From: Alphaproteobacteria bacterium
Lineage (GTDB): Bacteria; Pseudomonadota; Alphaproteobacteria; Rs-D84; CACZYB01
Length of the DNA: 63,844 bases
NCBI GenBank assembly: GCA_051885355.1
Contig: JBJEXC010000011.1
Coordinates: 1-63,844 of the forward strand
Direction: 5' to 3'
Made by a program: the position numbers and the translations under genes. Position 1 is the stretch's first letter. Every line of letters starts with the position of its first letter. The notes under the pieces were generated by a model that saw only the letters and a list, made by a program, of their open reading frames with translations, did not search any database and was not told the origin of the DNA. This document shows positions 47,235 through 63,844 of this stretch, one piece after another.

Positions 47235-48131
47235 ATGCTTCCACAAAATGAAATATTTGAAAAAATTGCACAAGATAAAGGTTGTAATATTGCATTTCCA
47301 ATAAAAGAAAACTTCCTTTTACAAGTAATAAAACAGTTTGTAGAAAATCTTGAATTACCAAATGGGTATAAATTTATTTTTGGTGGTGGAACAAGTCTTG
47401 TCTGTGCTTATGATGAACTTACAAAACGTTTTAGTGAAGATGCTGATTTCCGTATCGTACCAAAACCTAAACATACGGAAGATATAAGAAATCAACTTAA
47501 ACAAATTGCAGATAATTTAAAGGGATTTAAGTTATCAAATCGTAAAGATGATAGAAACATGATTACATTTTCATTTGAGGCTACAGATTTTAATATTCCT
47601 TCACATGAAGCAATTAAACCAGATATTAAAATGGAAGTATTTTTCACAAATAATTTATTTTATGAACCAAAAGAAAAAGAACTTATATCCTTTTATAATA
47701 AGTATGCAGGATTACCTTCTGAAACTAAAGTATTGTGTGTTTCTCTTGAAGATACAACTATTGATAAAATAAGCACATTACTATGGAGAATTGCATCAAA
47801 CAAAACTGAAACTCCTAAATATAATAAACCTGATATAAGACATTTGCATGATTTAGCTTATTTATATCCTAAGTTAAATATTGATGATAAATTCAAAAGT
47901 TATGTTTTACAAGTTGTAAATCAAGATATAAAGGAAAGATTAAAAAGTGATAAAACTTTCAATGAAGTTGTAAATGAAGTTTTATTAGAGTTAAAAACAA
48001 ATAAAACATATAAAAATGACTTTAAAACATATGTTGAAAATATGTCTTATGAAAAAACAGATAACCAATTAACTTTTGAAAAAGTATTAGAAAGTTTTGA
48101 GAAATTGATTTCGAAAATAGTTAGTATTTAA
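47235..48131 (+). CDS. abiEii: AbiEii/AbiGii-family nucleotidyltransferase toxin (DUF1814)
   Basis: FGGGTSLVCAY...RFSEDADF nucleotidyltransferase motif. 298 aa. Confidence 0.85.
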   Translation: MLPQNEIFEKIAQDKGCNIAFPIKENFLLQVIKQFVENLELPNGYKFIFGGGTSLVCAYDELTKRFSEDADFRIVPKPKHTEDIRNQLKQIADNLKGFKLSNRKDDRNMITFSFEATDFNIPSHEAIKPDIKMEVFFTNNLFYEPKEKELISFYNKYAGLPSETKVLCVSLEDTTIDKISTLLWRIASNKTETPKYNKPDIRHLHDLAYLYPKLNIDDKFKSYVLQVVNQDIKERLKSDKTFNEVVNEVLLELKTNKTYKNDFKTYVENMSYEKTDNQLTFEKVLESFEKLISKIVSI

Positions 48132-48139
48132 TAAAAATA

Positions 48140-48967
48140 TCAATTGTCATTATACCCCAAACCATTTCTAGTACATAAAGTGTCTTTCCACCATTGTTCT
48201 CTATCTATAATAATTTTATCACTTACTTTAGAATTAAATATATCTAATATTGAATACTGAAAATTTTTCTTTATATAATCAAATCCTTTTTCATTTACAA
48301 TTTTTTTTAAGATTTTATTTCCTCCATGCCCATTATCGACATAATTTTTCCATCTTCCAAGTAACGCTTCATTTCCATATGCAGATCCCACATATAATTT
48401 ACCATTATTTTTATCTGTTATTAAATATACCGCTTTTTGATTTTTAAAAGCATTTATCCAATCTATCTTATTTTTCTCCAATATATTTTTTAATTCAATA
48501 TATGATAAACACACATTATCATAACCTTTAAATTCTTTTCCATCATAAGGAGTTGGCAAAATATTAGTTACAATAAGTTTGTCTAAACAGTTATTTGCAG
48601 TAAGACATTGTTGTTGACTCGTTTTATGAAAATTTATAATAATTCTTCCAAAAAATGGTTTATATTCATCTAATTCAGTCCCCTCAAAAGAAATTCCATT
48701 TTTAATCTTTAAATCTTTTGTAACCTTTTTTATTGTTGTTAATAAATGTGTATCTGCATTTAATTCTAATAAAGATATGGCAATTTGTCCCTCTTTAAAA
48801 TTAGCATTATAAGTTCTTCCAAACAAATAATTTATATTAACTATATCTGGATTTTCCACATACTTATCTACTATGTCTTTTTCTGAATAATAATTATTAA
48901 ATTTTATTTTAGTAATATTAACCTGATCTTTAGTCAAATGAAGTATATCATTAAGTTTTATATCCAT
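48140..48967 (-). CDS. GIY-YIG nuclease-domain protein with about 170-aa N-terminal domain of unknown function
   Basis: KAVYLITDKNNGKLYVGSAYG...LLGRWKNY... is a GIY-YIG core. Confidence 0.75.
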   Translation of the reverse strand: MDIKLNDILHLTKDQVNITKIKFNNYYSEKDIVDKYVENPDIVNINYLFGRTYNANFKEGQIAISLLELNADTHLLTTIKKVTKDLKIKNGISFEGTELDEYKPFFGRIIINFHKTSQQQCLTANNCLDKLIVTNILPTPYDGKEFKGYDNVCLSYIELKNILEKNKIDWINAFKNQKAVYLITDKNNGKLYVGSAYGNEALLGRWKNYVDNGHGGNKILKKIVNEKGFDYIKKNFQYSILDIFNSKVSDKIIIDREQWWKDTLCTRNGLGYNDN

Positions 48968-49293
48968 TTTCTTTCCTATATGTTTAATATATTTTAAGTA
49001 TCAATACACATTACTAAATATAATAATATAACTAAAAGAATAAAATCACAACTATTTCTTCAGCATATTTATAATTTTAAAATAAACAAACATAGAATAT
49101 TCAAAATTTAACCATAAATAATTATAGAAACTTCATTTTTACATTCCTATAAATGTAATTTCTAACATTTTTAGGTTCCAATAAATGTAATTTTTTTTAC
49201 ATTTTAGTTTGATACAATATATTTTTTATGAAAAATAACAAAACTGTCCTTTATATATATAATAATAACTACTTCAAAATAAGTTAAAGATAC

Positions 49294-50643
49294 TTAATTT
49301 TCAAGCCTCATTAACCAATTAAGAACATTTTGACGCTTTATTCCATTTATATCTTCACTACCAATATCCATTGACAATATATATTTTTTATAGTTATCAT
49401 TTATTTCTTTTAATGGGCGAAGTTCTCTATTCAATGTATCTGTAGATTCATTAACATAATATGCAACTTGATAATATTCTACAATATTATCTTTTTTAGC
49501 TACAAAATCAACTTCTATTGAAACTCGTTCTGTTTTACCTTCTTTATTCTTTATATACTTAGATATTTGACCAAAGGAAACTTTATAACCTCTTCTTAAT
49601 AATTCTAAATATACAAGGTTCTCCAGCATATGACCTTTATCTTCAGTATACTTTCTGTTAGCAAGTAAAGTATTTCTTAAACCTATATCAACAACAAAAT
49701 ATTTTGAATTACCATTTAATATTTGCTTTCCTTTTATGTTATATCTTTTACATTCATATAATAAGTAACTATCCAATAAACCTTTTATATATTTTGATAT
49801 ATCTGGAACAGATATTTTTATTCCCGTATTTTTAAGAGCATTTGCTATTCCTCTTAAAGATGTTTCACTTCCTATATTATTGAATATATATAAAATTACA
49901 TTCTCTAAATTTTTAGAATTTTTTATATTAAATCTTTTTATTATATCCTTTTGTAAAGTATTGTTATAAACAACATCTCTAAGGTAATCTTCTATCATCT
50001 GTCTATCCCAAGATAAATTAACAGTTTGAGGAAAACCACTATTTTGAATATATTTTAAATATATGTCATTTATACTATCTTTAGTTAATACTTCTTGTTT
50101 TGATTTACCATTGTTTTCATTTGTCAAAAGATAAGCTCCATAGTATTCAGCAAATGAATAAGGTTGCATTTTTATTTCAACATATCTACCCCCAAAGAAA
50201 TTAGAAAGATCACTTGAGAACATATATGCATTTGAACCAGTTAGATATACATCAACATTATCTTGCAAACGTAAAGTATTTGCTACCTGTTGCCAATTAT
50301 TAAGAAGTTGTATTTCATCTATAAATACATAATTCATTTTATTTGGTTGAATTTTACTCATAATAAAATTAAGCAATGTTTCAAAACTATCCAAGAAACC
50401 ATCCTTATTCAAAGACAATCCTATTTCTTGAACTTTTAGTTGGTCTTCAAGGTTTATACTTATTATTTGGTCTTTTGTTATCTTCTTTTCTTCTAATAAT
50501 TTGTTTTGAAATATTTCCAAAAGTTTGGACTTACCGCAACGTCTTACACCTGTGATTATTTTCACTAAATCAGGTGAATTACTCCATTTCTCTAGTTTTT
50601 GGATATATTCATTCCTGTAAAATAAATTTTTATCGTAAGGCAT
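49294..50643 (-). CDS. AAA-type ATPase (AAA_14 + DUF4143 architecture)
   Basis: P-loop GVRRCGKSKLL, Walker B VFIDEIQ and a C-terminal DUF4143-like region. Start at MPYDKN. Confidence 0.8.
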   Translation of the reverse strand: MPYDKNLFYRNEYIQKLEKWSNSPDLVKIITGVRRCGKSKLLEIFQNKLLEEKKITKDQIISINLEDQLKVQEIGLSLNKDGFLDSFETLLNFIMSKIQPNKMNYVFIDEIQLLNNWQQVANTLRLQDNVDVYLTGSNAYMFSSDLSNFFGGRYVEIKMQPYSFAEYYGAYLLTNENNGKSKQEVLTKDSINDIYLKYIQNSGFPQTVNLSWDRQMIEDYLRDVVYNNTLQKDIIKRFNIKNSKNLENVILYIFNNIGSETSLRGIANALKNTGIKISVPDISKYIKGLLDSYLLYECKRYNIKGKQILNGNSKYFVVDIGLRNTLLANRKYTEDKGHMLENLVYLELLRRGYKVSFGQISKYIKNKEGKTERVSIEVDFVAKKDNIVEYYQVAYYVNESTDTLNRELRPLKEINDNYKKYILSMDIGSEDINGIKRQNVLNWLMRLEN

Positions 50644-50883
50644 TTTAACCTCCATAATGCTTTTCCCTTTAATTATATTACGATTTTGTGTAAAGTCAAT
50701 ATTTTATTTGAAATTTCTAAACAATTTTATGTATATACACACTTTTGTTTAAAAAATTTATAATAATTTTAAAATAACAGATAATATTTCTTATACCACA
50801 TTTTCTCTTAAAAGTCAAGAACAAAATACAAACATTATTTTCCCCTTGCCTTATATAATCGGAGTTAGTATAATTTTCCCATT

Positions 50884-52563
50884 ATGAAAAAGGTATTTTT
50901 AGTTATTTTTGTATTTTGTGCGAGGGTGGTATTTTCGCAAACTCCTGAGCAGATTCAACGTTCACAACAGCAATTAATTGATGCAGGATTTAAGAGGCAG
51001 GAGTTAGAGCGTGCGATCAGCAAACCGTCCACTCAACAACCACAACAAAGTGAGGAAACTGCACCTCAAAAATCATCGCATTGCGTTCAAATCAACAGCA
51101 TTGAATTTGATGGAAATACAAAACTTTCCACCCACAAAATCAACAAACTTTCAAAACCTTTTCTTAATAAATGCCTGACGGTGGAGGAGATAAACAAACT
51201 TCTTAACACTATCACAAACGCCTATATTGACAAGGGTTTTATCACAAGCGGGGCTTACCTTAAAACTCCGCAAACCAAAACCAAAGACGGCATTTTGCAA
51301 ATCAAAATCATAGAGGGGACTATTGAAAAAATTAATGGGTTAAAGGAGGCGGAACGCATCTCCGCATTTCCAAATTTGCTTGGTAAAATTCTAAATCTTC
51401 GTGATATAGAGCAAGGGCTTGACCAGATGAATCGCCTTTCTTCCAACCACGCAACTATGGAAATAACCGCATCCGAAAATGCAAACGGAGCAAGCCAAAT
51501 CGTGATTAAAAACACCCCTGAAAGTCGCGTTTCCTATAACACTTACACCGACAATCTCGGCTCCAAATCCACGGGTCAATACAGGGCTGGTGTCAACTTC
51601 GGCATTGACAATATGTTGGGCGTCAACGACCAATTAAACATAGGCTACACAAACTCACTTACCGAACATTACGGTGATAAAAATTCACACTCCGCAAGCA
51701 TAGGTTTTTCTGTGCCATTCGGGTATTGGACCTTCACAAACAACACCTCCTACTCCTACTATAAAACCAATGTAAAACTTCCGATAAGCAGGGAAAAATT
51801 ATACTCCTTCGGCGACAGCTGGACTGACAATTTTTCCGTGGAACGTTTGCTTGCCAGAGGGCAAAAGTATAAGGTTTCCGCATTGGTCGGATTATCATAC
51901 AAGGAAAACGATAACTACACAAAGGTCCTTGACATACTCACAAAAAACGAGGTATCAAGCAGGCATCTTTCAAACATAGAATACGCCTTGCCAACGACAA
52001 TTTATTTTGACCGAGGCGTCATATTCGCAAAGCCATCTTTTGTGAACAGAGTAAAACTTTTCGGGAGTTTAGAGGACGATGGAACCTTCCAACAAAAGGC
52101 TCAATTTGAGGCATACAAACTTTACCTTTACACAGGTTTCAATTTTGGTTTTGTGAATTTGGCAACCACCTTTGACGGTCAATACAGCCCTGATGAACTT
52201 TTCTCCTCCGACGGATTTTATATTGGAAGTGAAGCATCGGTCAGAGGTTTTGCTAACGAAGGTTTAACCGGGGACAGTGGCTTTTACATAAGGAACGATT
52301 TGAAGTTTAATTTGGCGGATATTTTTAAAAGTCAGAATGTGTTTTTGAGAGATTTTAGCCCAAGCATTTTCTTTGATTACGGTTTTGTAAAAACCAATAA
52401 CGATGATGAAAAATCGGAGCTTTCAAGTATGGGTGCAAAAATAAATTACAGATATAAGATAGTGGATTTTTCCACCACCTACGCCCACCCGTTGAAAAAA
52501 GAAACTGAAATGTCCGGCACCCCCGAAACCTACTTCACGATTTCAATCAATGGAAGGTTTTAG
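50884..52563 (+). CDS. ShlB/FhaC/HecB-family two-partner-secretion outer-membrane transporter (TpsB)
   Basis: Signal peptide, POTRA-type region (VQINSIEFDGNTKLS...ITNAYIDKGFITSGAYL...ILQIKIIEGTIEKI), a beta-barrel-type C-terminal half and a terminal F. Confidence 0.9.
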   Translation: MKKVFLVIFVFCARVVFSQTPEQIQRSQQQLIDAGFKRQELERAISKPSTQQPQQSEETAPQKSSHCVQINSIEFDGNTKLSTHKINKLSKPFLNKCLTVEEINKLLNTITNAYIDKGFITSGAYLKTPQTKTKDGILQIKIIEGTIEKINGLKEAERISAFPNLLGKILNLRDIEQGLDQMNRLSSNHATMEITASENANGASQIVIKNTPESRVSYNTYTDNLGSKSTGQYRAGVNFGIDNMLGVNDQLNIGYTNSLTEHYGDKNSHSASIGFSVPFGYWTFTNNTSYSYYKTNVKLPISREKLYSFGDSWTDNFSVERLLARGQKYKVSALVGLSYKENDNYTKVLDILTKNEVSSRHLSNIEYALPTTIYFDRGVIFAKPSFVNRVKLFGSLEDDGTFQQKAQFEAYKLYLYTGFNFGFVNLATTFDGQYSPDELFSSDGFYIGSEASVRGFANEGLTGDSGFYIRNDLKFNLADIFKSQNVFLRDFSPSIFFDYGFVKTNNDDEKSELSSMGAKINYRYKIVDFSTTYAHPLKKETEMSGTPETYFTISINGRF

Positions 52564-52565
52564 AA

Positions 52566-52627
52566 GCATTTACACTTGATGTGAAAGTGAAGAGGAGGAT
52601 AAGGATATAGGTGAGGATGTTAGTCAT
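52566..52627 (-). pseudogene. Stand-alone remnant of the cassette leader (MTNILTYILILLFTFTSSVNAS), no toxin body
   Basis: A sixth copy of the conserved leader block. Homology stops 3-7 nt from the tpsB stop codon. Confidence 0.7.
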
Positions 52628-53585: not shown

Positions 53586-54596
53586 TTAAATCAAATCTAA
53601 CCTTTTTAGTAATATTACTTCTTGACTCATAAAAACAGTATCTCCTGATTTATTTTTTATTACCTTAACGTTATTTCCTAAAAATTCTTCTATATCATTA
53701 GCAATTTTATCAATCTTCTTAGAGTTTATACCAGAGTTACCACTCTTCGCTCCAACCTCTTCCATTGTAGTCATATTTTTATTAGATGCAACATTTGTTT
53801 TCATTGACGAGTATAAACCATATACGCCTATACTCATATTAACTGTATTACCTGCCATATCCCAGGTCATATCTGAATTATTCATATACTGACCTGAGAA
53901 GTTCTCATAATAACCATATTCATTTTTTCCCTGATATAACATATAGCCATCTTCTGCAAACCCTGTTAAACCCATTGATGTATAGCCAATACCTGAAACT
54001 AAATTACTACCACCAACAGTAAAACCTGAAGATACAAGACCTAATCCATTCTTTGCAGTAGAATACATCAACTGATTTTTATTTACTTTTCCATTTTCTG
54101 TATAATACATTCCATTACTATCTGGACCAGTTTTCAAACTTGCTATATTACTTCCTAAATTTTGAGCACTTTTACCTGCAGTATATGCTGTCCAAGCCCA
54201 CATTCCTAGTTTTACTGCTCCTATCACAAGAGGAGGAATATTATCCCTATTCTCTACCCTACTCCAATCTATCGTATTCCCTATTACATAAGATGAATTG
54301 TTATCCACGCTCCAATTACCCAAACTGGTATCTTTTCCGTTTATCCATAGACTGTCGGTATATGCTCCTATGAAGTTATTACCAAGATACTTTGCGAAAT
54401 CTTCATTTGAGCCATATATTGCATGACCTACTTCATGACCAAATACTCCCAATCCTTTTTCTGTATTTCCATTTATATATAAATCATTTAGGTATATATC
54501 GTGGGTATCTTTATCGTGGTGTTGTATATAGCAAGCGTTTACACTTGATGTGAAAGAGAAAAGGAGGATAAGGATATAGGTGAGGAAGTTAGTCAT
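53586..54596 (-). CDS. Leader-bearing polymorphic toxin cassette T5 (HExxH module + variable C-terminus; apparently frameshifted near the 3' end)
   Basis: Leader MTNFLTYILILLFSFTSSVNAC, then HDKDTHDIY...FGHEVGHAIYGS...WSRVENRDN, then a unique region. A second frame continues to 53476. Confidence 0.7.
   Translation of the reverse strand: MTNFLTYILILLFSFTSSVNACYIQHHDKDTHDIYLNDLYINGNTEKGLGVFGHEVGHAIYGSNEDFAKYLGNNFIGAYTDSLWINGKDTSLGNWSVDNNSSYVIGNTIDWSRVENRDNIPPLVIGAVKLGMWAWTAYTAGKSAQNLGSNIASLKTGPDSNGMYYTENGKVNKNQLMYSTAKNGLGLVSSGFTVGGSNLVSGIGYTSMGLTGFAEDGYMLYQGKNEYGYYENFSGQYMNNSDMTWDMAGNTVNMSIGVYGLYSSMKTNVASNKNMTTMEEVGAKSGNSGINSKKIDKIANDIEEFLGNNVKVIKNKSGDTVFMSQEVILLKRLDLI
54248..54551. repeat. 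304-bp perfect direct repeat, copy 1 (copy 2 at 55838-56141)
   Basis: Every 10-mer block was checked by eye at a constant offset of 1590 bp. Confidence 0.9.
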
Positions 54597-55169: not shown

Positions 55170-56186
55170 CTATTTCAAATTAGTTATTTTTCTACCTGGA
55201 ATAACTGTAATAACAGAACCTTCATTATTTGTTACTACATTTACTTTATTAATTTTATCATAATAATATATTTTTGTAGCAGAACTATTAATTTCTTTAG
55301 TTCCCGAAGAAATAGTATTTTCTACAACAGATGGAGAAAGACCTCTACCTTGCATTTGATCTAATGCATGTCCTGTATAATATCTGTCTAATATTGTCGT
55401 AGGTTTATTTGTCCCAGATTGTATAGATATAGGATTATTTATTACTCCAACAATTTCATGTGTTCCTGTTTTAGGTAATGGTTTTGCAACCTTTTCCGCT
55501 TCTCCAAGATATTTTAAATCTGTTCCTATACCACTAATATGATCTATGTCTAAAGCATCATCAACTTTACTCATTAACTTTGAACCAACCTTACTTACTG
55601 CTTTTCCTCCTACATATAATCCCCCTCCAATGATTAAATCTGTCGCTCCTTCTTTTATGTTCCCTCCAGCTGTATATATCTTACCGTCTACTATCGGATC
55701 CTTATATTCTGTCTTACCCTTATATCCTTTCCCCTTTATCCATGCATATATCTTCCTTGCACTATCTTGGATTGAGTATACCTCTCCTGCTATTACTAAA
55801 GCTGTTATTGCCATACTAATAGGTTCAAAGTTGTCTTTATTCTCTACCCTACTCCAATCTATCGTATTCCCTATTACATAAGATGAATTGTTATCCACGC
55901 TCCAATTACCCAAACTGGTATCTTTTCCGTTTATCCATAGACTGTCGGTATATGCTCCTATGAAGTTATTACCAAGATACTTTGCGAAATCTTCATTTGA
56001 GCCATATATTGCATGACCTACTTCATGACCAAATACTCCCAATCCTTTTTCTGTATTTCCATTTATATATAAATCATTTAGGTATATATCGTGGGTATCT
56101 TTATCGTGGTGTTGTATATAGCAAGCGTTTACACTTGATGTAAAAGTGAAGAGTAGGATAAGTATATAGGTTAGAAAGTTAGTCAT
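55170..56186 (-). CDS. Leader-bearing polymorphic toxin cassette T4 (HExxH module, shared middle domain, RNase-like tip)
   Basis: Same leader and HExxH module (304 bp identical to T5), then VENKDN. The middle domain is shared with T0 and T1. The tip YYTGHALDQMQGRGLSPSVVENTI...GSVITVIPG resembles DUF4258/BECR-type RNase toxins. Confidence 0.7.
   Translation of the reverse strand: MTNFLTYILILLFTFTSSVNACYIQHHDKDTHDIYLNDLYINGNTEKGLGVFGHEVGHAIYGSNEDFAKYLGNNFIGAYTDSLWINGKDTSLGNWSVDNNSSYVIGNTIDWSRVENKDNFEPISMAITALVIAGEVYSIQDSARKIYAWIKGKGYKGKTEYKDPIVDGKIYTAGGNIKEGATDLIIGGGLYVGGKAVSKVGSKLMSKVDDALDIDHISGIGTDLKYLGEAEKVAKPLPKTGTHEIVGVINNPISIQSGTNKPTTILDRYYTGHALDQMQGRGLSPSVVENTISSGTKEINSSATKIYYYDKINKVNVVTNNEGSVITVIPGRKITNLK
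55838..56141. repeat. 304-bp perfect direct repeat, copy 2
   Basis: See 54248-54551. Confidence 0.9.
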
Positions 56187-56577: not shown

Positions 56578-58038
56578 CTAACGTAAATTTTTAGTTATTT
56601 TATTAGCTTCTTTAAATAATCTATGTGTTATAGTATTATTTCTAGGATCTAACACATATTCAAAAAATCCTTTATTCCCATTTTTAGTACCTTCTATAAT
56701 AGCTTTATAATATATATTATTATCTCCTCCTGTAAATTTAACCCAATCTTTTGGTTTTAATAATTTATCTATTAAAATAGGAAAATCATGATTATCACCT
56801 TTCCCAATTTTACTTAATACAGAGGAACTATATTTAAAATCATTAGCATCACCTTTAAATAACCCTCTAATACCTCCCTTAATACCTTTCACAAATGGTG
56901 CTATTCCCATTAATAAATTACCACCAATATCCATTGTACCATATATCTTTAAATTTGTCTCTAAATCTTCTGATGATATATGTTCTCCACTTGGTCTCAT
57001 ATATTCTCCATTACCTATATATCCTACATCAGCTATCGCTTTTGCCTCACCTCCTTTGTATGCTCCTACAGCTGCAATAATTACTCCTCCCACAAAAGTT
57101 ATCGTAACAGGCTCTAAATTATCCCTGTTCTCTACCTTACTCCAATCCATCGTATTCCCTATTACATAAGATGAATTGTTATCCACGCTCCAATTACCTA
57201 GACTGGTATCTTGTCCGTTTATCCATAGGCCGTCGGTATAGGCTCCTGTGAAGTTATTACCCAGATACTTTACGAAATCTTCATCTGAGCCGTATATTGC
57301 ATGACCTACTTCATGACCGAATACTTCCAATCCCTTTTCTGTATTTCCATTTATATACAAGTCATTTAGGTATATATCGTGGGTATCTTTATCGTGGGAA
57401 CCTCCTGTGATAACTCCTACCACTTTGTTGGTATTATCATTTACACCAAGTTCCATACCAGCAAAAGTTTTAACATTACCGATTTTTATATAATCGTCAT
57501 CGGTTTCATCTTTACCTGTATTATAGATACCAGCAATTTCATTTTTAAACATAGCAAGAGCTATATCTTTTTCTTCCACAGTTGCATCAATTTGACCAGA
57601 CAGAATCGCAACCGCTTCTTCACCACCGTTTGTATTCAATAGATTTGATATTGCAAGCTTAGATACTTCTTTGTATCTGATACCACTTAAAGCTTGGTTC
57701 AAAGTGACATCAGTCATAACTGCGTCATACAAATTAGTTGCTATATTTTCAATGAAACTCTCAGATACCTTGAAATCCTTCAATATCTTCTTTCTCCCCT
57801 CCCCACTAAACACCCTATTGTCTATAGTCATACTTCCATCCAAAGCACCAGTGATTTTATCCTTTGTAATTTCTTGAGCTCTTTCTACATCCCTGTTTAG
57901 TCCCTCTAAATCAGAGTTAGTTTCCCCTCCTACTGTTATATTACCTGGGCCTATTGTTGCGTGAGGAAGATAACAAGCACTTACACTTGATGTAAAAGTG
58001 AAGAATAGGATAAGGATATAGGTGAGAAAGTTAGTCAT
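56578..58038 (-). CDS. Leader-bearing polymorphic toxin cassette T3 (pre-toxin block + HExxH module + unique tip)
   Basis: Leader, then HATIGPGNITVGGETNSDLEGLNRDVERAQEITKDKITGALDGSMTIDNRVFSGEG, a linker, then HDKDTHDIY...HEVGH...VENRDN and a unique 180-aa C-terminus. Confidence 0.75.
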   Translation of the reverse strand: MTNFLTYILILFFTFTSSVSACYLPHATIGPGNITVGGETNSDLEGLNRDVERAQEITKDKITGALDGSMTIDNRVFSGEGRKKILKDFKVSESFIENIATNLYDAVMTDVTLNQALSGIRYKEVSKLAISNLLNTNGGEEAVAILSGQIDATVEEKDIALAMFKNEIAGIYNTGKDETDDDYIKIGNVKTFAGMELGVNDNTNKVVGVITGGSHDKDTHDIYLNDLYINGNTEKGLEVFGHEVGHAIYGSDEDFVKYLGNNFTGAYTDGLWINGQDTSLGNWSVDNNSSYVIGNTMDWSKVENRDNLEPVTITFVGGVIIAAVGAYKGGEAKAIADVGYIGNGEYMRPSGEHISSEDLETNLKIYGTMDIGGNLLMGIAPFVKGIKGGIRGLFKGDANDFKYSSSVLSKIGKGDNHDFPILIDKLLKPKDWVKFTGGDNNIYYKAIIEGTKNGNKGFFEYVLDPRNNTITHRLFKEANKITKNLR

Positions 58039-58789
58039 TTTTCATCAAAACTGAAAATCTTATAATCAAATCAGAAAACAATAAAGATTTAAAATCTTTT
58101 TCATCATAAATCTCTATATTACAATCTGATATCAATGTATCTTTGGTTAAGGTATCAAAATAATTTTGTAATATTTGTTGCTTCTCTTTGTTTTCATTAC
58201 CAATAGGAATAAATTTAATTTTATAATCATTTATTATAATATCCCCTAAATATATATTTTCAATTTTTTTCAAATAAATCTTTGTATCATTAAAAACAGA
58301 CTTTGCCATATTGTCACTATATAAGGAATATATATTACTTTGCATTTGAGAAGTATTTTTTCCATGATAATCCAACATATTTTTCTTTCTTCTACAAGTC
58401 TGATTTCTACTATATGTCTTCCATTCTAAAACTTTATCAGAATTATCTACTTTAAATATTCCATTTTGATCAAAACTAAGTATACTATGCCCAGTTCCTA
58501 TTTTCAAATCTTCCTCACTAAAAGAAGTAATCAATTTTTTTCTACTTTTATCTTCATAAATAAAATATCTGATATCTCGTCTATCCTGTAAAGATATATT
58601 AGGATTATAATCAAGATTTAAAATATCACCTTTTTTAAAATACAATACATTATTATATTTGAAGTAAGGAATATAAACAAAAATTTCATCATAATATAAA
58701 TTTTTAATTACAACAGGAAAAACTGGATATACAATATGAAAACAAGCAGTTAATACCAACAAAATACACATTATAAATATTTTCTTCAT
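58031..58789 (-). CDS. Immunity-like lipoprotein (252 aa)
   Basis: Start at MKKIFIMCILLVLTACF (lipobox LTAC), 1 nt after the T2 stop. Ends ...KND overlapping the T3 leader ATG. The longer ORF-track start (58978) overlaps T2 and is rejected. Confidence 0.55.
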   Translation of the reverse strand: MKKIFIMCILLVLTACFHIVYPVFPVVIKNLYYDEIFVYIPYFKYNNVLYFKKGDILNLDYNPNISLQDRRDIRYFIYEDKSRKKLITSFSEEDLKIGTGHSILSFDQNGIFKVDNSDKVLEWKTYSRNQTCRRKKNMLDYHGKNTSQMQSNIYSLYSDNMAKSVFNDTKIYLKKIENIYLGDIIINDYKIKFIPIGNENKEKQQILQNYFDTLTKDTLISDCNIEIYDEKDFKSLLFSDLIIRFSVLMKND

Positions 58790-58790
58790 T

Positions 58791-59648
58791 TTAAATTCCC
58801 TTATATTTTTGATTTCCATATTTATCTGCATCGGCTTCAAATCTATTTTTTGATGTAAATGGATTATCCAATAAATACATAGGTAAAAATAGTGGCCCCC
58901 ACTGTCTATACTGTTGAACATGTCTATTTTCATGCTCTCTCCATATTGTCCAATCATCTTCTGTAGGAACCTCAACAAATAATCCTAACTCCCTTGCCTC
59001 TTTTACTCTTTCTGAATATTCATATGTACGATTAGCAATATCTATACCATCTCCATAATCATCAACATATCCAAAATAATTTACAACTTGTCCAAATGTT
59101 GTAGCCCAATCATTTAAATTTTCCTCTCCAAATAAACCATTTAACATATGAAACAAAGGATTTCCTATTATATTATGAATTCTATTTTCTTCATCATATT
59201 CATGTCTAGCTCCTAATAAAACTCCGATAGCTCCAATTGTAGCACCTATCATAGTATTTGGCAAGTTCCAAATATCTCCCAAAACTGTTAATGTATTCCC
59301 TACTAAATTCGTATGATCCTCTATTATACTCCTCCAGCCCTCTCCGCTAAATACCCTATTGTCTATAGTCATACTTCCATCCAAAGCACCAGTGATTTTA
59401 TCCTTTGTAATTTCTTGAGCTCTTTCTACATCCCTGTTTAGTCCCTCTAAATCAGAGTTAGTTTCCCCTCCTACTGTTATATTACCTGAGCCTATTGTAG
59501 CGTGAGTTATTTGTTCCTTTTCCGAACCCTTGTCCTTCATAGTTATAGTTGTTGAACCGTTTGGATGGATGGAGTAGTAATAGCAAGCATTTACACTTGA
59601 TGTGAAAGAGAAAATAAGAATGAGGATATAGGTAAGGAAGTTAATCAT
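58791..59648 (-). CDS. Leader-bearing polymorphic toxin cassette T2 (pre-toxin block + HExxH-containing tip)
   Basis: Leader MINFLTYILILIFSFTSSVNAC, a pre-toxin block 135 bp identical to T3, and a tip with NLPNTMIGATIGAIGVLLG and REHENRHVQQYRQWGPLF. Confidence 0.75.
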   Translation of the reverse strand: MINFLTYILILIFSFTSSVNACYYYSIHPNGSTTITMKDKGSEKEQITHATIGSGNITVGGETNSDLEGLNRDVERAQEITKDKITGALDGSMTIDNRVFSGEGWRSIIEDHTNLVGNTLTVLGDIWNLPNTMIGATIGAIGVLLGARHEYDEENRIHNIIGNPLFHMLNGLFGEENLNDWATTFGQVVNYFGYVDDYGDGIDIANRTYEYSERVKEARELGLFVEVPTEDDWTIWREHENRHVQQYRQWGPLFLPMYLLDNPFTSKNRFEADADKYGNQKYKGI

Positions 59649-60223: not shown

Positions 60224-61252
60224 CTATTTATATCTAATATCAATATACTTTCCCAAATTATAATCATATACTTCCAAAGTATCAACCCCTTTCAAGGAAG
60301 TACTTTTATGTAAATTTATAATTTCTCCATCTCTTGTACTTCCAATTATAGCATTATTTTTATGGATAGGTTCAACAACATTTATAGAGCTAAAATCGTC
60401 TAAAGCATTTCCTCCCTTCTCATAATTAATAACTTTTTTAGGACTATTTTGAATTGTTGATAGTTTAGAATCCTTCAAAATATTATCAAAACTATTAACT
60501 TTATCAACTGGTTTTAAATCAGTTCCTATACCACTAATATGATCTATATCTAATGCATCATCTACCTTACTCATTAACTTAGAACCAACCTTATTTACAG
60601 CTTTTCCTCCTACATATAATCCCCCTCCAATGATTAAATCTGTCGCTCCTTCCTTTAAATTACCTTCAGCTGTATATATTTTCCCATTTATTGGATCAAC
60701 ATAAGTTGTTTTTCCTTTATATCCTTCTCCATCAAACCATGCATATATTTTCCTTGCACTATCTTGGATTGAGTAAATACTTGCTGCAATGGCTAATCCA
60801 GTCAATATAAAACCATCTCCTCTACCCTCTCCTGTCATAGTATTATGCAAATCCGATATAAGTCCAAGACTTCCCTCCCTTATCGTATCCTCTCCGCTAT
60901 GAGATTCTAACCACTCATCTCCTCCCATTCCATTAGTATTCTCGTTACCATAGTTCTTTAGTCCGAAGATTCCTGCTCCTGTATCTCCTCTATTCTTCGC
61001 AGTAATCTCATTTGCATTATGTTCTTCAAAGTTTGTAGTTTCGTGATACAACGCATTCATCAAAGCTTTTGGATCGGACATATCTATATTTGCCATATTA
61101 AGCGTTATATTTTTTACTTCGCTGTCGTTACTTTGATATGCAAAACCTATTATATTTCCATTTTCTGTTGTTGTATGTGGAACATAGTAGACATTTACAC
61201 TTGATGTAAATGTGAAGAGGAGAATGAGGATATAGGTGAGGAGTTTAGTCAT
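60224..61252 (-). CDS. Leader-bearing polymorphic toxin cassette T1
   Basis: Leader MTKLLTYILILLFTFTSSVNVYY, then about 650 bp identical to the partial ORF at the window edge, then a unique 110-aa tip. Confidence 0.75.
   Translation of the reverse strand: MTKLLTYILILLFTFTSSVNVYYVPHTTTENGNIIGFAYQSNDSEVKNITLNMANIDMSDPKALMNALYHETTNFEEHNANEITAKNRGDTGAGIFGLKNYGNENTNGMGGDEWLESHSGEDTIREGSLGLISDLHNTMTGEGRGDGFILTGLAIAASIYSIQDSARKIYAWFDGEGYKGKTTYVDPINGKIYTAEGNLKEGATDLIIGGGLYVGGKAVNKVGSKLMSKVDDALDIDHISGIGTDLKPVDKVNSFDNILKDSKLSTIQNSPKKVINYEKGGNALDDFSSINVVEPIHKNNAIIGSTRDGEIINLHKSTSLKGVDTLEVYDYNLGKYIDIRYK
60513..61161. repeat. About 650-bp direct repeat, copy 1 (identical by eye to 62808-63457)
   Basis: Line-by-line comparison of T1 and T0 DNA. 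Confidence 0.85.
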
Positions 61253-62462: not shown

Positions 62463-63844
62463 TTAATCACCTATTTTTATAGAAAAATGCCCTTTCATTC
62501 CTTCATCTATTTGTTTTAATGTATAAGGATCAATACCTGCGTTACTTTTTGGTAAAGAATACTTTACATACCCATTAGGATATGCAGGTATTTTACCATT
62601 ATTTTTAGCTTCCACAGGATTCATAATTCTCATATCAACTTGTGTTCCTTTTATTGTACCACCTTCTAATATAACGCCTTTCCCATTATTTGCAAGGTTT
62701 AGTGTATAATTTTCTGGAACAGGAAATACTTGACCTGAAGAATCCACAAAGAAATTTGTTCCTGTCTTAGGTAATGGTTTTGCGACCTTCTCCGCTTCTC
62801 CAAGATATTTTAAATCAGTTCCTATACCACTAATATGATCTATATCTAATGCATCATCTACCTTACTCATTAACTTAGAACCAACCTTATTTACAGCTTT
62901 TCCTCCTACATATAATCCCCCTCCAATGATTAAATCTGTCGCTCCTTCCTTTAAATTACCTTCAGCTGTATATATTTTCCCATTTATTGGATCAACATAA
63001 GTTGTTTTTCCTTTATATCCTTCTCCATCAAACCATGCATATATTTTCCTTGCACTATCTTGGATTGAGTAAATACTTGCTGCAATGGCTAATCCAGTCA
63101 ATATAAAACCATCTCCTCTACCCTCTCCTGTCATAGTATTATGCAAATCCGATATAAGTCCAAGACTTCCCTCCCTTATCGTATCCTCTCCGCTATGAGA
63201 TTCTAACCACTCATCTCCTCCCATTCCATTAGTATTCTCGTTACCATAGTTCTTTAGTCCGAAGATTCCTGCTCCTGTATCTCCTCTATTCTTCGCAGTA
63301 ATCTCATTTGCATTATGTTCTTCAAAGTTTGTAGTTTCGTGATACAACGCATTCATCAAAGCTTTTGGATCGGACATATCTATATTTGCCATATTAAGCG
63401 TTATATTTTTTACTTCGCTGTCGTTACTTTGATATGCAAAACCTATTATATTTCCATCTACATTTGCAAGTTTTAAATCTCCACTAAATCCGCCACCTTC
63501 TGCTACAAAATCAGCAACTTGTTGTAATATGGCTTGAGCTTCTGGAGAATCAAAATCAGTCATTCCGTTAAGAGCCACAACTAAATCCCTACGTTTCTCC
63601 TGCAACTCTGTCATCTGCCTGTCTTGCTTTACATAGTCTGCAATCGTATCTATCAAATCCTTCGTTTTATCAGTAATTGCATTTTCTATCGCCTTTACTA
63701 CTATATTGTTTCTCAACCCACTTCCTATTTGAACAAGGTTATCCCCTATCTCCTCATGTTGCTTAACTATCTCCGCTCTTCCCTCTCCACTAAATACCCT
63801 ATTGTCTATAGTCATACTTCCATCCAAAGCACCAGTGATTTTAT
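62463..63844 (-). CDS. C-terminal part of a toxin-bearing exoprotein T0 (5' end outside the window)
   Basis: The frame is open to the window edge, where it reads KITGALDGSMTIDNRVFSGEG, identical to T2 and T3. It then has a linker, a degenerate zincin-like module (LYHETTNFEEH), the shared middle domain and a unique tip. Confidence 0.8.
   Translation of the reverse strand, partial: KITGALDGSMTIDNRVFSGEGRAEIVKQHEEIGDNLVQIGSGLRNNIVVKAIENAITDKTKDLIDTIADYVKQDRQMTELQEKRRDLVVALNGMTDFDSPEAQAILQQVADFVAEGGGFSGDLKLANVDGNIIGFAYQSNDSEVKNITLNMANIDMSDPKALMNALYHETTNFEEHNANEITAKNRGDTGAGIFGLKNYGNENTNGMGGDEWLESHSGEDTIREGSLGLISDLHNTMTGEGRGDGFILTGLAIAASIYSIQDSARKIYAWFDGEGYKGKTTYVDPINGKIYTAEGNLKEGATDLIIGGGLYVGGKAVNKVGSKLMSKVDDALDIDHISGIGTDLKYLGEAEKVAKPLPKTGTNFFVDSSGQVFPVPENYTLNLANNGKGVILEGGTIKGTQVDMRIMNPVEAKNNGKIPAYPNGYVKYSLPKSNAGIDPYTLKQIDEGMKGHFSIKIGD
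62808..63457. repeat. About 650-bp direct repeat, copy 2
   Basis: See 60513-61161. Confidence 0.85.

Follow-up and report, generated by a model that had tools for sequence, protein, structure and literature searches.

The 63,844-nucleotide stretch analyzed here (hereafter the window; contig JBJEXC010000011.1 of assembly GCA_051885355.1, from an alphaproteobacterium) ends with an array of toxin gene cassettes, T0 to T5, and the element under study is a module in T5, repeated in T4 and T3, that combines a zincin-like HExxH motif with the motif VEN[RK]DN. This module very probably forms the tail (93-96 codons) of the pretoxin (PT) region of a CdiA-like two-partner-secretion toxin and ends at a recombination joint. 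We favor the explanation that it is the tail of a PT domain, that the joint is real, and that the domain releases the toxin by zincin-type self-cleavage; as a whole, this explanation is assigned a probability of about 0.55. A sequence-only reading of the window had already proposed a CdiA-type polymorphic toxin array. This placement is supported by a CdiB gene in the window and by full-length relatives that carry the module in the same place, and the locus is, by its predicted products, a CdiA-like two-partner-secretion toxin array with orphan cassettes. All array genes of the region lie on the minus strand, and their translation contains the module with FGHEVGH as quoted in that reading, 93-96 aa long in T5, T4, and T3 and ending in VENRDN, VENKDN, and VENRDN, respectively. 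The copies of T5 (54240..54527; HEVGH 54423-54437, VENRDN 54240-54257) and T4 (55830..56117; HEVGH 56013-56027, VENKDN 55830-55847) are truncated. T3 possesses a complete PT domain (aa 82-304; 57127..57795) that reaches from just after the ...IDNRVFSGEG anchor to V-E-N, with HEVGH at 57301-57315 and VENRDN at 57118-57135, and the interval 57118-57396 named before is its 3' part.

The approximately 95 residues of the module do not make up a domain, as T3 and the full-length relatives extend the homology about 130 aa further upstream. The complete PT domain comprises about 220 residues, bounded by the conserved terminus of the filamentous part (..TGALDxSxTxDNRxF..) on one side and by the joint on the other. 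Of the orphans, T3 is the least truncated and retains the end of the filamentous part (HATIGPGNITVGG..LNRD..ITKD..TGALDGSMTIDNRVFSGEG), which is common to T2 and T0; about 220 residues follow this anchor and end in VEN. The T4 and T5 copies are cut 22 aa upstream of HExxH, and this 5' edge is, to judge from the alignments, merely the truncation point of the orphans. Because the upstream half of the domain is missing, these two copies should not be peptidases on their own. Two main genes from other genomes carry the module in full context. The product of the first, P0010 (2,330 aa), has Pfam TPS and Fil_haemagg_2 domains, the module at residues 1967-2092, and a weak Ribonuclease match at its C-terminus (a barnase-like tip), and a Barstar gene adjoins; its PT region aligns with that of T3 over 234 aa (34% identity, E=1e-42). 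The second, L024, codes for a repeat region of more than 1,691 aa, the same anchor, and a module with HETGH and an IENKDD joint.

HE[VIT]GH is invariant in every member covering that stretch, down to 34-39% identity, and forms part of the most conserved block, GLGVFGHEVGHxxYGxxE, together with YTDGLWING. The columns invariant between T3-type sequences and P0010 are G6 H7 E8 G10 H11 G15 E18 D34 G35 W37. Counted from the second His, they include a Gly at +4, a Glu at +7, and an Asp at +23, and by its conservation the Glu at +7 is a likely candidate for the third metal ligand. HExxH occurs four times in the window as compared to 0.28 expected (22,016 residues in open frames of at least 100 aa), once in each of the three module copies and once in the T2 tip; the sequence is His-poor, and its composition predicts 0.001 HExxH per module. 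The best Pfam match, Peptidase_M32, was obtained with the complete PT domain of L024 (E=3e-4) and spans residues 3-152, with HETGH at 138-142. Further sub-threshold matches were to Zn_peptidase_2 (PF04298; E 0.005-0.09), M48 (0.05), and Reprolysin_2, and the L024 domain additionally matched M91 of the NleD/HopH1-like type (0.043) and M48. The matches to these five zincin families extend over 20-150 residues, all covering HExxH, and the alignments run through a strand-loop-helix element and the motif, but all scores are under the curated cut-offs, the best being 20 bits vs 25.1. The earlier description of the module as zincin-like thus gains some support from the invariant signature and from best matches that are repeatedly zincins, and a match above threshold did not emerge; the profile and structure searches that had been suggested returned sub-threshold Pfam matches and models of low confidence. 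On this evidence, the PT domain probably is zincin-derived and very divergent.

The motif might instead reflect lineage history and have neither a catalytic nor a metal-binding role, in which case the module would be a lineage-specific spacer tail of the PT region that serves as a homology arm in the orphans. All members other than P0010 are at least 52% identical, so that their conservation is weakly informative; family matches fall short of significance, and the models are not usable; and the T4 and T5 copies begin only 22 aa before HExxH. We consider this alternative improbable, because the motif survives at 34-39% identity within the most conserved block of the domain, far exceeds what composition predicts for a module, and lies in a domain whose top sub-threshold Pfam matches are repeatedly zincins.

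The other part of the module, VEN[RK]DN, had been likened to the VENN boundary between constant and variable regions, and this comparison holds. When 17 distinct module-bearing proteins were anchored on the motif and the 40 residues before it were compared with the 40 residues after it, 17 pairs combined an identity of 80% or more ahead of the motif with one of 30% or less beyond it; in five pairs the pattern was reversed, with divergence before the motif and likeness after it. According to these pair statistics, the variability of the homologs does begin at the motif. Identical PT subtypes occur with either type A or type B of the middle modules that follow the joint, and the converse also occurs; for example, the subtype ..GQNGVDFSG-VKNRDD precedes FEPISLTL..YSIQDSARKIY in P0017 and CGPLCLTV..GAYKGGEAKA in P0016. 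Including the variant of L024, the consensus of the joint is [VI]-[EKRQ]-[ND]-[RKM]-[DE]-[DNKY]-x-x-P. Position 1 is V in all members except L024, which has I, and the last constant residue can be N, D, K, or Y (VENRDN, VKNRDD, VQDMDK, VENKEY).

At the DNA level, the module copies of T5, T4, and T3 form a direct-repeat family (D1; 300 nt; identity 100, 97, and 89%). In a three-way alignment, no difference separates T4 from T5 between the start codon and the VEN codons; the first one falls in the codon thereafter (AGG GAT AAT vs AAA GAC AAC), where an R-to-K change precedes two synonymous ones. The likeness of T3 and T5 extends through RDN and ends there. Consequently, the breakpoints lie within three codons of VEN. 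That [RK]-[DE]-[DN] is kept in the protein despite the DNA differences between T4 and T5 suggests selection on the flanks of a processing site. In light of these breakpoints, the joint is very probably the site of cassette exchange, and the 300-nt 3' PT pieces of T3, T4, and T5 can serve as homology arms. A second swap point is located upstream, right after ..DGSMTIDNRVFSGEG (57796-57825, 59337-59366, and 63780-63809), where the DNA of T0, T2, and T3 is 86-93% identical up to this point and unrelated beyond it (families D4 and D5). Around ..DGSMTIDNRVFSGEG, T3 has 83-191 nt in common with T2 and T0 (families D4 and D5), which would offer a nested route for cassette exchange.

The sequence-only reading held that the sequence becomes cassette-specific immediately after VEN[RK]DN and that the tip follows there. 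This is not so: in T4 the next 119 aligned residues are 85% identical to T0/T1, and an exchangeable middle module intervenes before the tip. A hydrophobic stretch does begin 7-10 residues after the V of the motif (17-aa Kyte-Doolittle mean 1.2-2.1), as had been noted, but this hydrophobic head belongs to the middle module, and the toxin comes later. The order within a cassette is PT domain, hydrophobic-headed middle module, toxin tip, and immunity gene. At least five types of middle module exist, which are common to toxins with different PT domains. Type A of T4 (..YSIQDSARKIYAW...PLPKTGT; 55449..55808, minus strand, DNA family D2) shares 101/119 residues with T0. T0, T1, and T4 diverge only past ..GTDLK (T1) or ..PLPKTGT (T0 and T4), where the T4 tip begins. 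T3 contains type B, whose hydrophobic head (LEPVTITFVGGVIIAAVGAY...) is encoded at 57048..57117 on the minus strand and is of the same type in relatives; it recurs ahead of different tips in P0002, P0006, P0008, and P0013-16. In T5, type C (IPPLVIGAVKLGMWAW...) and the tip occupy 53586..54239 on the minus strand, and the first 143 residues after the joint are 53% identical to P0036, an orphan whose PT domain is of the HETTN type described below. Position and modularity point to the middle module as the putative entry domain, and the three-tier layout parallels the entry and toxin domains of enterobacterial CdiA-CT, the C-terminal toxin region of CdiA (PMC9424206). There are six different C-terminal regions, each followed by small unrelated open reading frames (ORFs). 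None of nine putative immunity ORFs has a Pfam match, and a Pfam scan found a weak DUF4258 match in the tip of T4. As T3, T4, and T5 share the module and the immunity ORFs downstream are unrelated, the module is not the toxic part.

These immunity ORFs also bear on whether the PT domain could be a peptidase that acts in trans on the target envelope, either as an import aid or as a second, periplasmic toxin, while its own chain stays uncut. In the delivery model of CdiA, the PT domain, after FHA-2, comes to lie in the target envelope and would face the periplasm (PMC13625785, PMC9086364), and the locus does use zincin toxins, as T2 terminates in a distinct tip with HExxHxxQ. Activity in trans is very improbable all the same, since no dedicated immunity gene tracks the module, the immunity ORFs differing among T3, T4, and T5, and since sister PT types lack the motif.

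The PT module of T0 (63111-63452, minus strand) and T1 (60815-61156, minus strand) is such a sister type. In T0, YHETTNFEEH is encoded at 63315-63341 and the junction TGEG/RGD at 63111-63131. The sequence-only reading considered this module a relative of the HExxH module that had lost the second His. Statistics do not support a relationship: comparison of both modules yielded a BLASTP E of 1.6, an hhalign probability of 0.2%, and hmmsearch scores near zero in both directions, and HETTN is a conserved motif of a distinct family. YHETTNF[ED][EQ]H..NE..NRG..W is invariant across this family, in which the joint is G-[EDK]-G and not VEN; given this invariance, the T0 and T1 copies do not hold an HExxH in decay. 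The family has about 20 database members, among them several from metagenome-assembled genomes (MAGs) of Alphaproteobacteria (L009, L012-L014), went unmatched in Pfam, and shares its middle modules with the HExxH family. Elsewhere, the same position holds HEYSH (an Endomicrobia MAG), HEHARH (Alcanivorax nanhaiticus), AEERAH (two alphaproteobacterial MAGs), or nothing comparable (an Endomicrobium MAG). A MAFFT alignment of these positional equivalents displays a common strand/'x-Y-L-N'/HE/E/W pattern, which is a lead only as the sequences were trimmed around HE beforehand. If this graded series is real, most members of the wider group have given up the metal site and yet serve the same middle modules.

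Such losses would argue against a general need for peptidase activity, and several further points weigh against zincin-type self-release. Sister PT modules without the full HExxH, with YHETTN in T0, T1, L009, and L012-14, AEERAH in L010 and L011, and no equivalent in L020, occupy the same position and join the same middle modules, so that release cannot generally depend on a zincin. When the six toxin ORFs were scanned against Pfam and NCBIfam, the module gave no match above threshold, a PDB search with a single sequence and two profiles gave no relevant match, and in these searches no known zincin proved significantly similar by profile or by structure. AlphaFold2 models of T3 aa 60-330 (11 sequences) and of a 155-aa core (13 sequences including HETTN-type rows) had pLDDT values of 40.6 and 36.8, and Foldseek of the second model against the PDB returned nothing below E=2, which is uninformative at that pLDDT. 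Both models contain strands, a helix over HEVGH, and a second helix, an order compatible with a zincin core, but with pLDDT <60 over the motif this arrangement carries no weight. An active peptidase would furthermore need a safeguard against premature cleavage in the periplasm of the producer during secretion arrest. Published precedent adds to these points: HINT is the only protease listed for toxins of type V secretion systems (T5SS), with PT637 and PT-VENN as pretoxin domains (PMC3482391), and in E. coli the CT is released without any peptidase, by autoproteolysis through cyclization of the final Asn of VENN, which the substitution N2908A blocks (PMC13625785).

By analogy to this mechanism, the Asn of V-E-N might cyclize to a succinimide and the chain break there, with the HExxH domain as a structural or pseudo-enzyme scaffold, perhaps stabilized by a metal, that positions the Asn. 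Besides the VENN precedent and the effect of N2908A (PMC13625785), the distribution of this residue fits, as Asn is at motif position 3 in 16/17 proteins and in L023, L024, and L025, with Asp (VQD) only in P0010. The T4/T5 DNA breakpoint exactly after the VEN codons and the pairing of sister PT domains without full HExxH with the same middle modules also agree with such chemistry. It is difficult to reconcile with P0010, a full-length protein that has VQD in place of VxN and yet retains HEVGH; the HETTN-type joint G-[EDK]-G contains no Asn, so that Asn chemistry is not general in the clade; and it gives no reason why the H, E, H, G, and E residues are so strictly conserved. We regard release through the Asn as a serious rival, at less than even odds but hardly less probable than a zincin. 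Self-cleavage by an active, zincin-type PT domain is itself a tentative proposal, which we place slightly ahead of Asn cyclization because the metal-site signature is strictly conserved, because P0010 retains HEVGH although VQD replaces VEN, and because [RK]-[DE]-x-x-x-P is kept on the variable side of the joint despite DNA divergence.

If the PT domain is such a peptidase, the C-terminal half of the toxin would reach the target envelope, where the PT domain would fold. Its zincin core would be the strand-loop-helix element with the invariant G-H-E-x-G-H, the Gly four residues further on, and the Glu at +7 as the likely ligand. The domain would then cut its own chain at or beside the bond between V-E-N and [RK]-[DE]-x-x-x-P. 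Cleavage would free the N-terminus of the entry-like hydrophobic module, which would carry the toxin across the inner membrane. In enterobacterial CdiA, the entry domain becomes translocation-competent only when the chain is cut precisely behind VENN (PMC9424206). The truncated copies of T4 and T5 would not be enzymes and would matter only once recombined behind a complete PT domain such as that of T3. The HETTN and AEERAH modules would, under the same assumption, be descendants of the peptidase without activity that release their cargo by another route.

In its position after the end of FHA-2 and before the entry domain and toxin, the PT domain resembles PT-VENN (PF04829), and likewise it ends in a short motif that is the joint between constant and variable parts, a piece of it is kept in orphan cassettes, and V-E-N equals the first three residues of VENN. 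However, the motif here is V-E-N-[RK]-[DE]-[DN], without a conserved Asn directly before the variable part, and HExxH is present, whereas the PT domain of E. coli is described as alpha-helical and relies on Asn cyclization (PMC13625785). The PF04829 profile did not match T3, T4, T5, P0010, or L024 at E values up to 1 or 10. Lacking both a profile match and the terminal Asn, the domain falls outside PF04829. The published set of PT motifs comprises VENN, (E/Q)LYN in Burkholderia, WVHN, TENN, LYVT, DAMV, and NEALV in P. aeruginosa, and LPEN in Acinetobacter (PMC9086364), all of which are, like the motif described here, lineage-specific marks at the same joint; V-E-N-[RK]-D-[ND] is a new PT motif that is absent from this set (PMC9086364). 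The releasing peptidases known from polymorphic toxins are the PVC-metallopeptidase (HExxHxxQ-E), HINT, ZU5, and caspase-like domains (Zhang et al., 2012, PMC3482391). The PT domain is akin to them in being a peptidase-like domain N-terminal to the toxin with a zincin-type HExxH signature. The PVC-metallopeptidase, however, marks cargo of Photorhabdus virulence cassettes and extracellular contractile injection systems (PVC/eCIS) and not T5SS toxins (PMC3482391), and the signature here is GHExGHxxxGxxE (HEVGHAIYG), without the Q. The DUF4157 and Tox-MPTase families gave no profile match to the module, and a full-text literature search for CdiA together with HExxH retrieved no description of such a domain. 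If it is an active, self-cleaving metallopeptidase, which we consider rather unlikely at present, the PT domain would be the first of this type to serve toxin release in a type Vb (CdiA) system, in place of the Asn cyclization of VENN.

The PT module is extremely rare, with about 20 proteins among the billions searched. Against 5.8 billion protein clusters, a word-indexed search with the module found one relative and a profile search 12, all of them orphans of the same kind. An exhaustive phmmer search of 1.84 billion representatives yielded 11 matches to the module, a scan of JGI metagenomes three loci, and the module profile had no match in one genome each of 185,579 GTDB species. Most relatives are orphans from human or animal gut metagenomes that have the same leader, fused to the module at varying points. 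The anchor region was found at 15 loci in the species genomes, mostly MAGs of uncultured Alphaproteobacteria including Candidatus Enterousia, and also in Endomicrobia, Alcanivorax, and Marinomonas. On this basis the window probably derives from an uncultured, low-GC alphaproteobacterium of the gut, and Fusobacterium, which its AT richness had suggested, was rejected as the source. The GTDB locus nearest to the window in the anchor region (L008:3001-4005; 84% identity) continues into a different C-terminal region of 270 aa with SHEIIAHRD (HExxxH), which matches neither PT family, and then stops. Internal deletions in L001:7002 (also in L002-L005) and in P0007 join the start of the module straight to the middle module, at the junctions ..KSESGL/TVAESIYSIQDSARKIY and ..DLYINENTE/YEDPIVEGK.., and the entire stretch from HExxH to VEN is gone.

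T0 is the 3' end of the main cdiA-like gene (62463..63844, minus strand) and carries the other PT type. This main gene runs off the end of the window, which covers the whole contig; a TPS domain and haemagglutinin repeats are seen in P0010 and a long repeat region in L024, both of which carry the HExxH module. Three small ORFs follow T0, and one or two follow each of T1, T2, T3, T4, and T5. T2 (58791-59648, minus strand) does not contain the PT module; here, ..DNRVFSGEG is followed by a hydrophobic stretch and the tip. This tip contains EHENRHVQQ (58920-58934), the HExxHxxQ signature of PVC-type metallopeptidases, and has no Pfam match. The ORF after T2 (inside 58031-58978) includes a start resembling that of a lipoprotein (MKKIFIMCILLVLTAC), compatible with an immunity protein located in the periplasm.

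The orphans begin with a common leader. In T5 it reads MTNFLTYILILLFSFTSSVNACY (54528..54596, minus strand, family D3) and is in frame with the truncated module; further copies of 23 residues (MTNFLTYILILLFTFTSSVNA..) form the starts of T4 (56118-56186), T3 (57970-58038), T2 (59580-59648), and T1 (61184-61252). This leader is the signal peptide of the TpsB/CdiB protein of L025 (L025:1113-2378; ShlB 5e-45, POTRA_2 2e-24), which reads MTKLLTYIFLLFFSFTLSVNA/QVAEDIQRHQQNLIDAGF.., so that each orphan joins, in frame, the signal peptide of a cdiB gene to the truncated 3' end of a cdiA gene. A lipoprotein signal was ruled out, because the Cys is not conserved (SSVNAGY, SSVNVYY, SSAYP). Each orphan start codon overlaps the stop codon of the preceding immunity ORF (..KND-stop), and the orphans may be translated and exported by the Sec pathway. 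Published orphans usually have no initiation codon (PMC9086364), whereas those described here possess a start codon and a borrowed CdiB signal peptide. As in Burkholderia, where orphan modules can sit between cdiI and cdiB (PMC9086364), the same arrangement exists in L025. The TpsB/CdiB transporter of the window is encoded on the plus strand (50884..52563; ShlB 6e-68, POTRA_2 3e-23, POTRA_3 1e-17), convergent with the array, and its signal peptide (MKKVFLVIFVFCARVVFS/QTPEQIQRSQQQLIDAGF) differs from the leader. A leader stub of 26 codons (..SSVNASKTFH-stop; 52546-52626, minus strand) closes the array, and its 3' end overlaps that of cdiB. The convergent orientation, the differing signal peptide, and the overlapping stub suggest that cdiB was inverted or replaced. 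Beside cdiB are genes for an AbiEii-family nucleotidyltransferase toxin (47235-48131), a GIY-YIG ORF (48140-48967), and an AAA_14/DUF4143 ATPase (49294-50655), which suggest that a defense or mobile-element island (47235-50655) adjoins the contact-dependent growth inhibition (CDI) locus.

How CdiA toxins are released and activated inside target cells has begun to be understood only recently, and solely for the VENN type of enterobacteria. Even if the HExxH motif is inert, the module would still represent a new PT family and a new motif for the annotation of CDI systems in gut metagenomes; at present, Pfam has no match in this region. That the same middle modules serve two unrelated PT domains supports the notion of entry domains as autonomous parts. 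The small PT domain is also a mutable system, in which three zinc-site residues can be set against one Asn, and proof that its metal site cuts the chain would make it more interesting. If zincin-type self-release is true, a cut between V-E-N and [RK]-D-x-x-x-P would expose a hydrophobic N-terminus as the driver of entry into the membrane, and a PT domain with a protease signature in uncultured gut bacteria would show that there is more than one solution to the release step.

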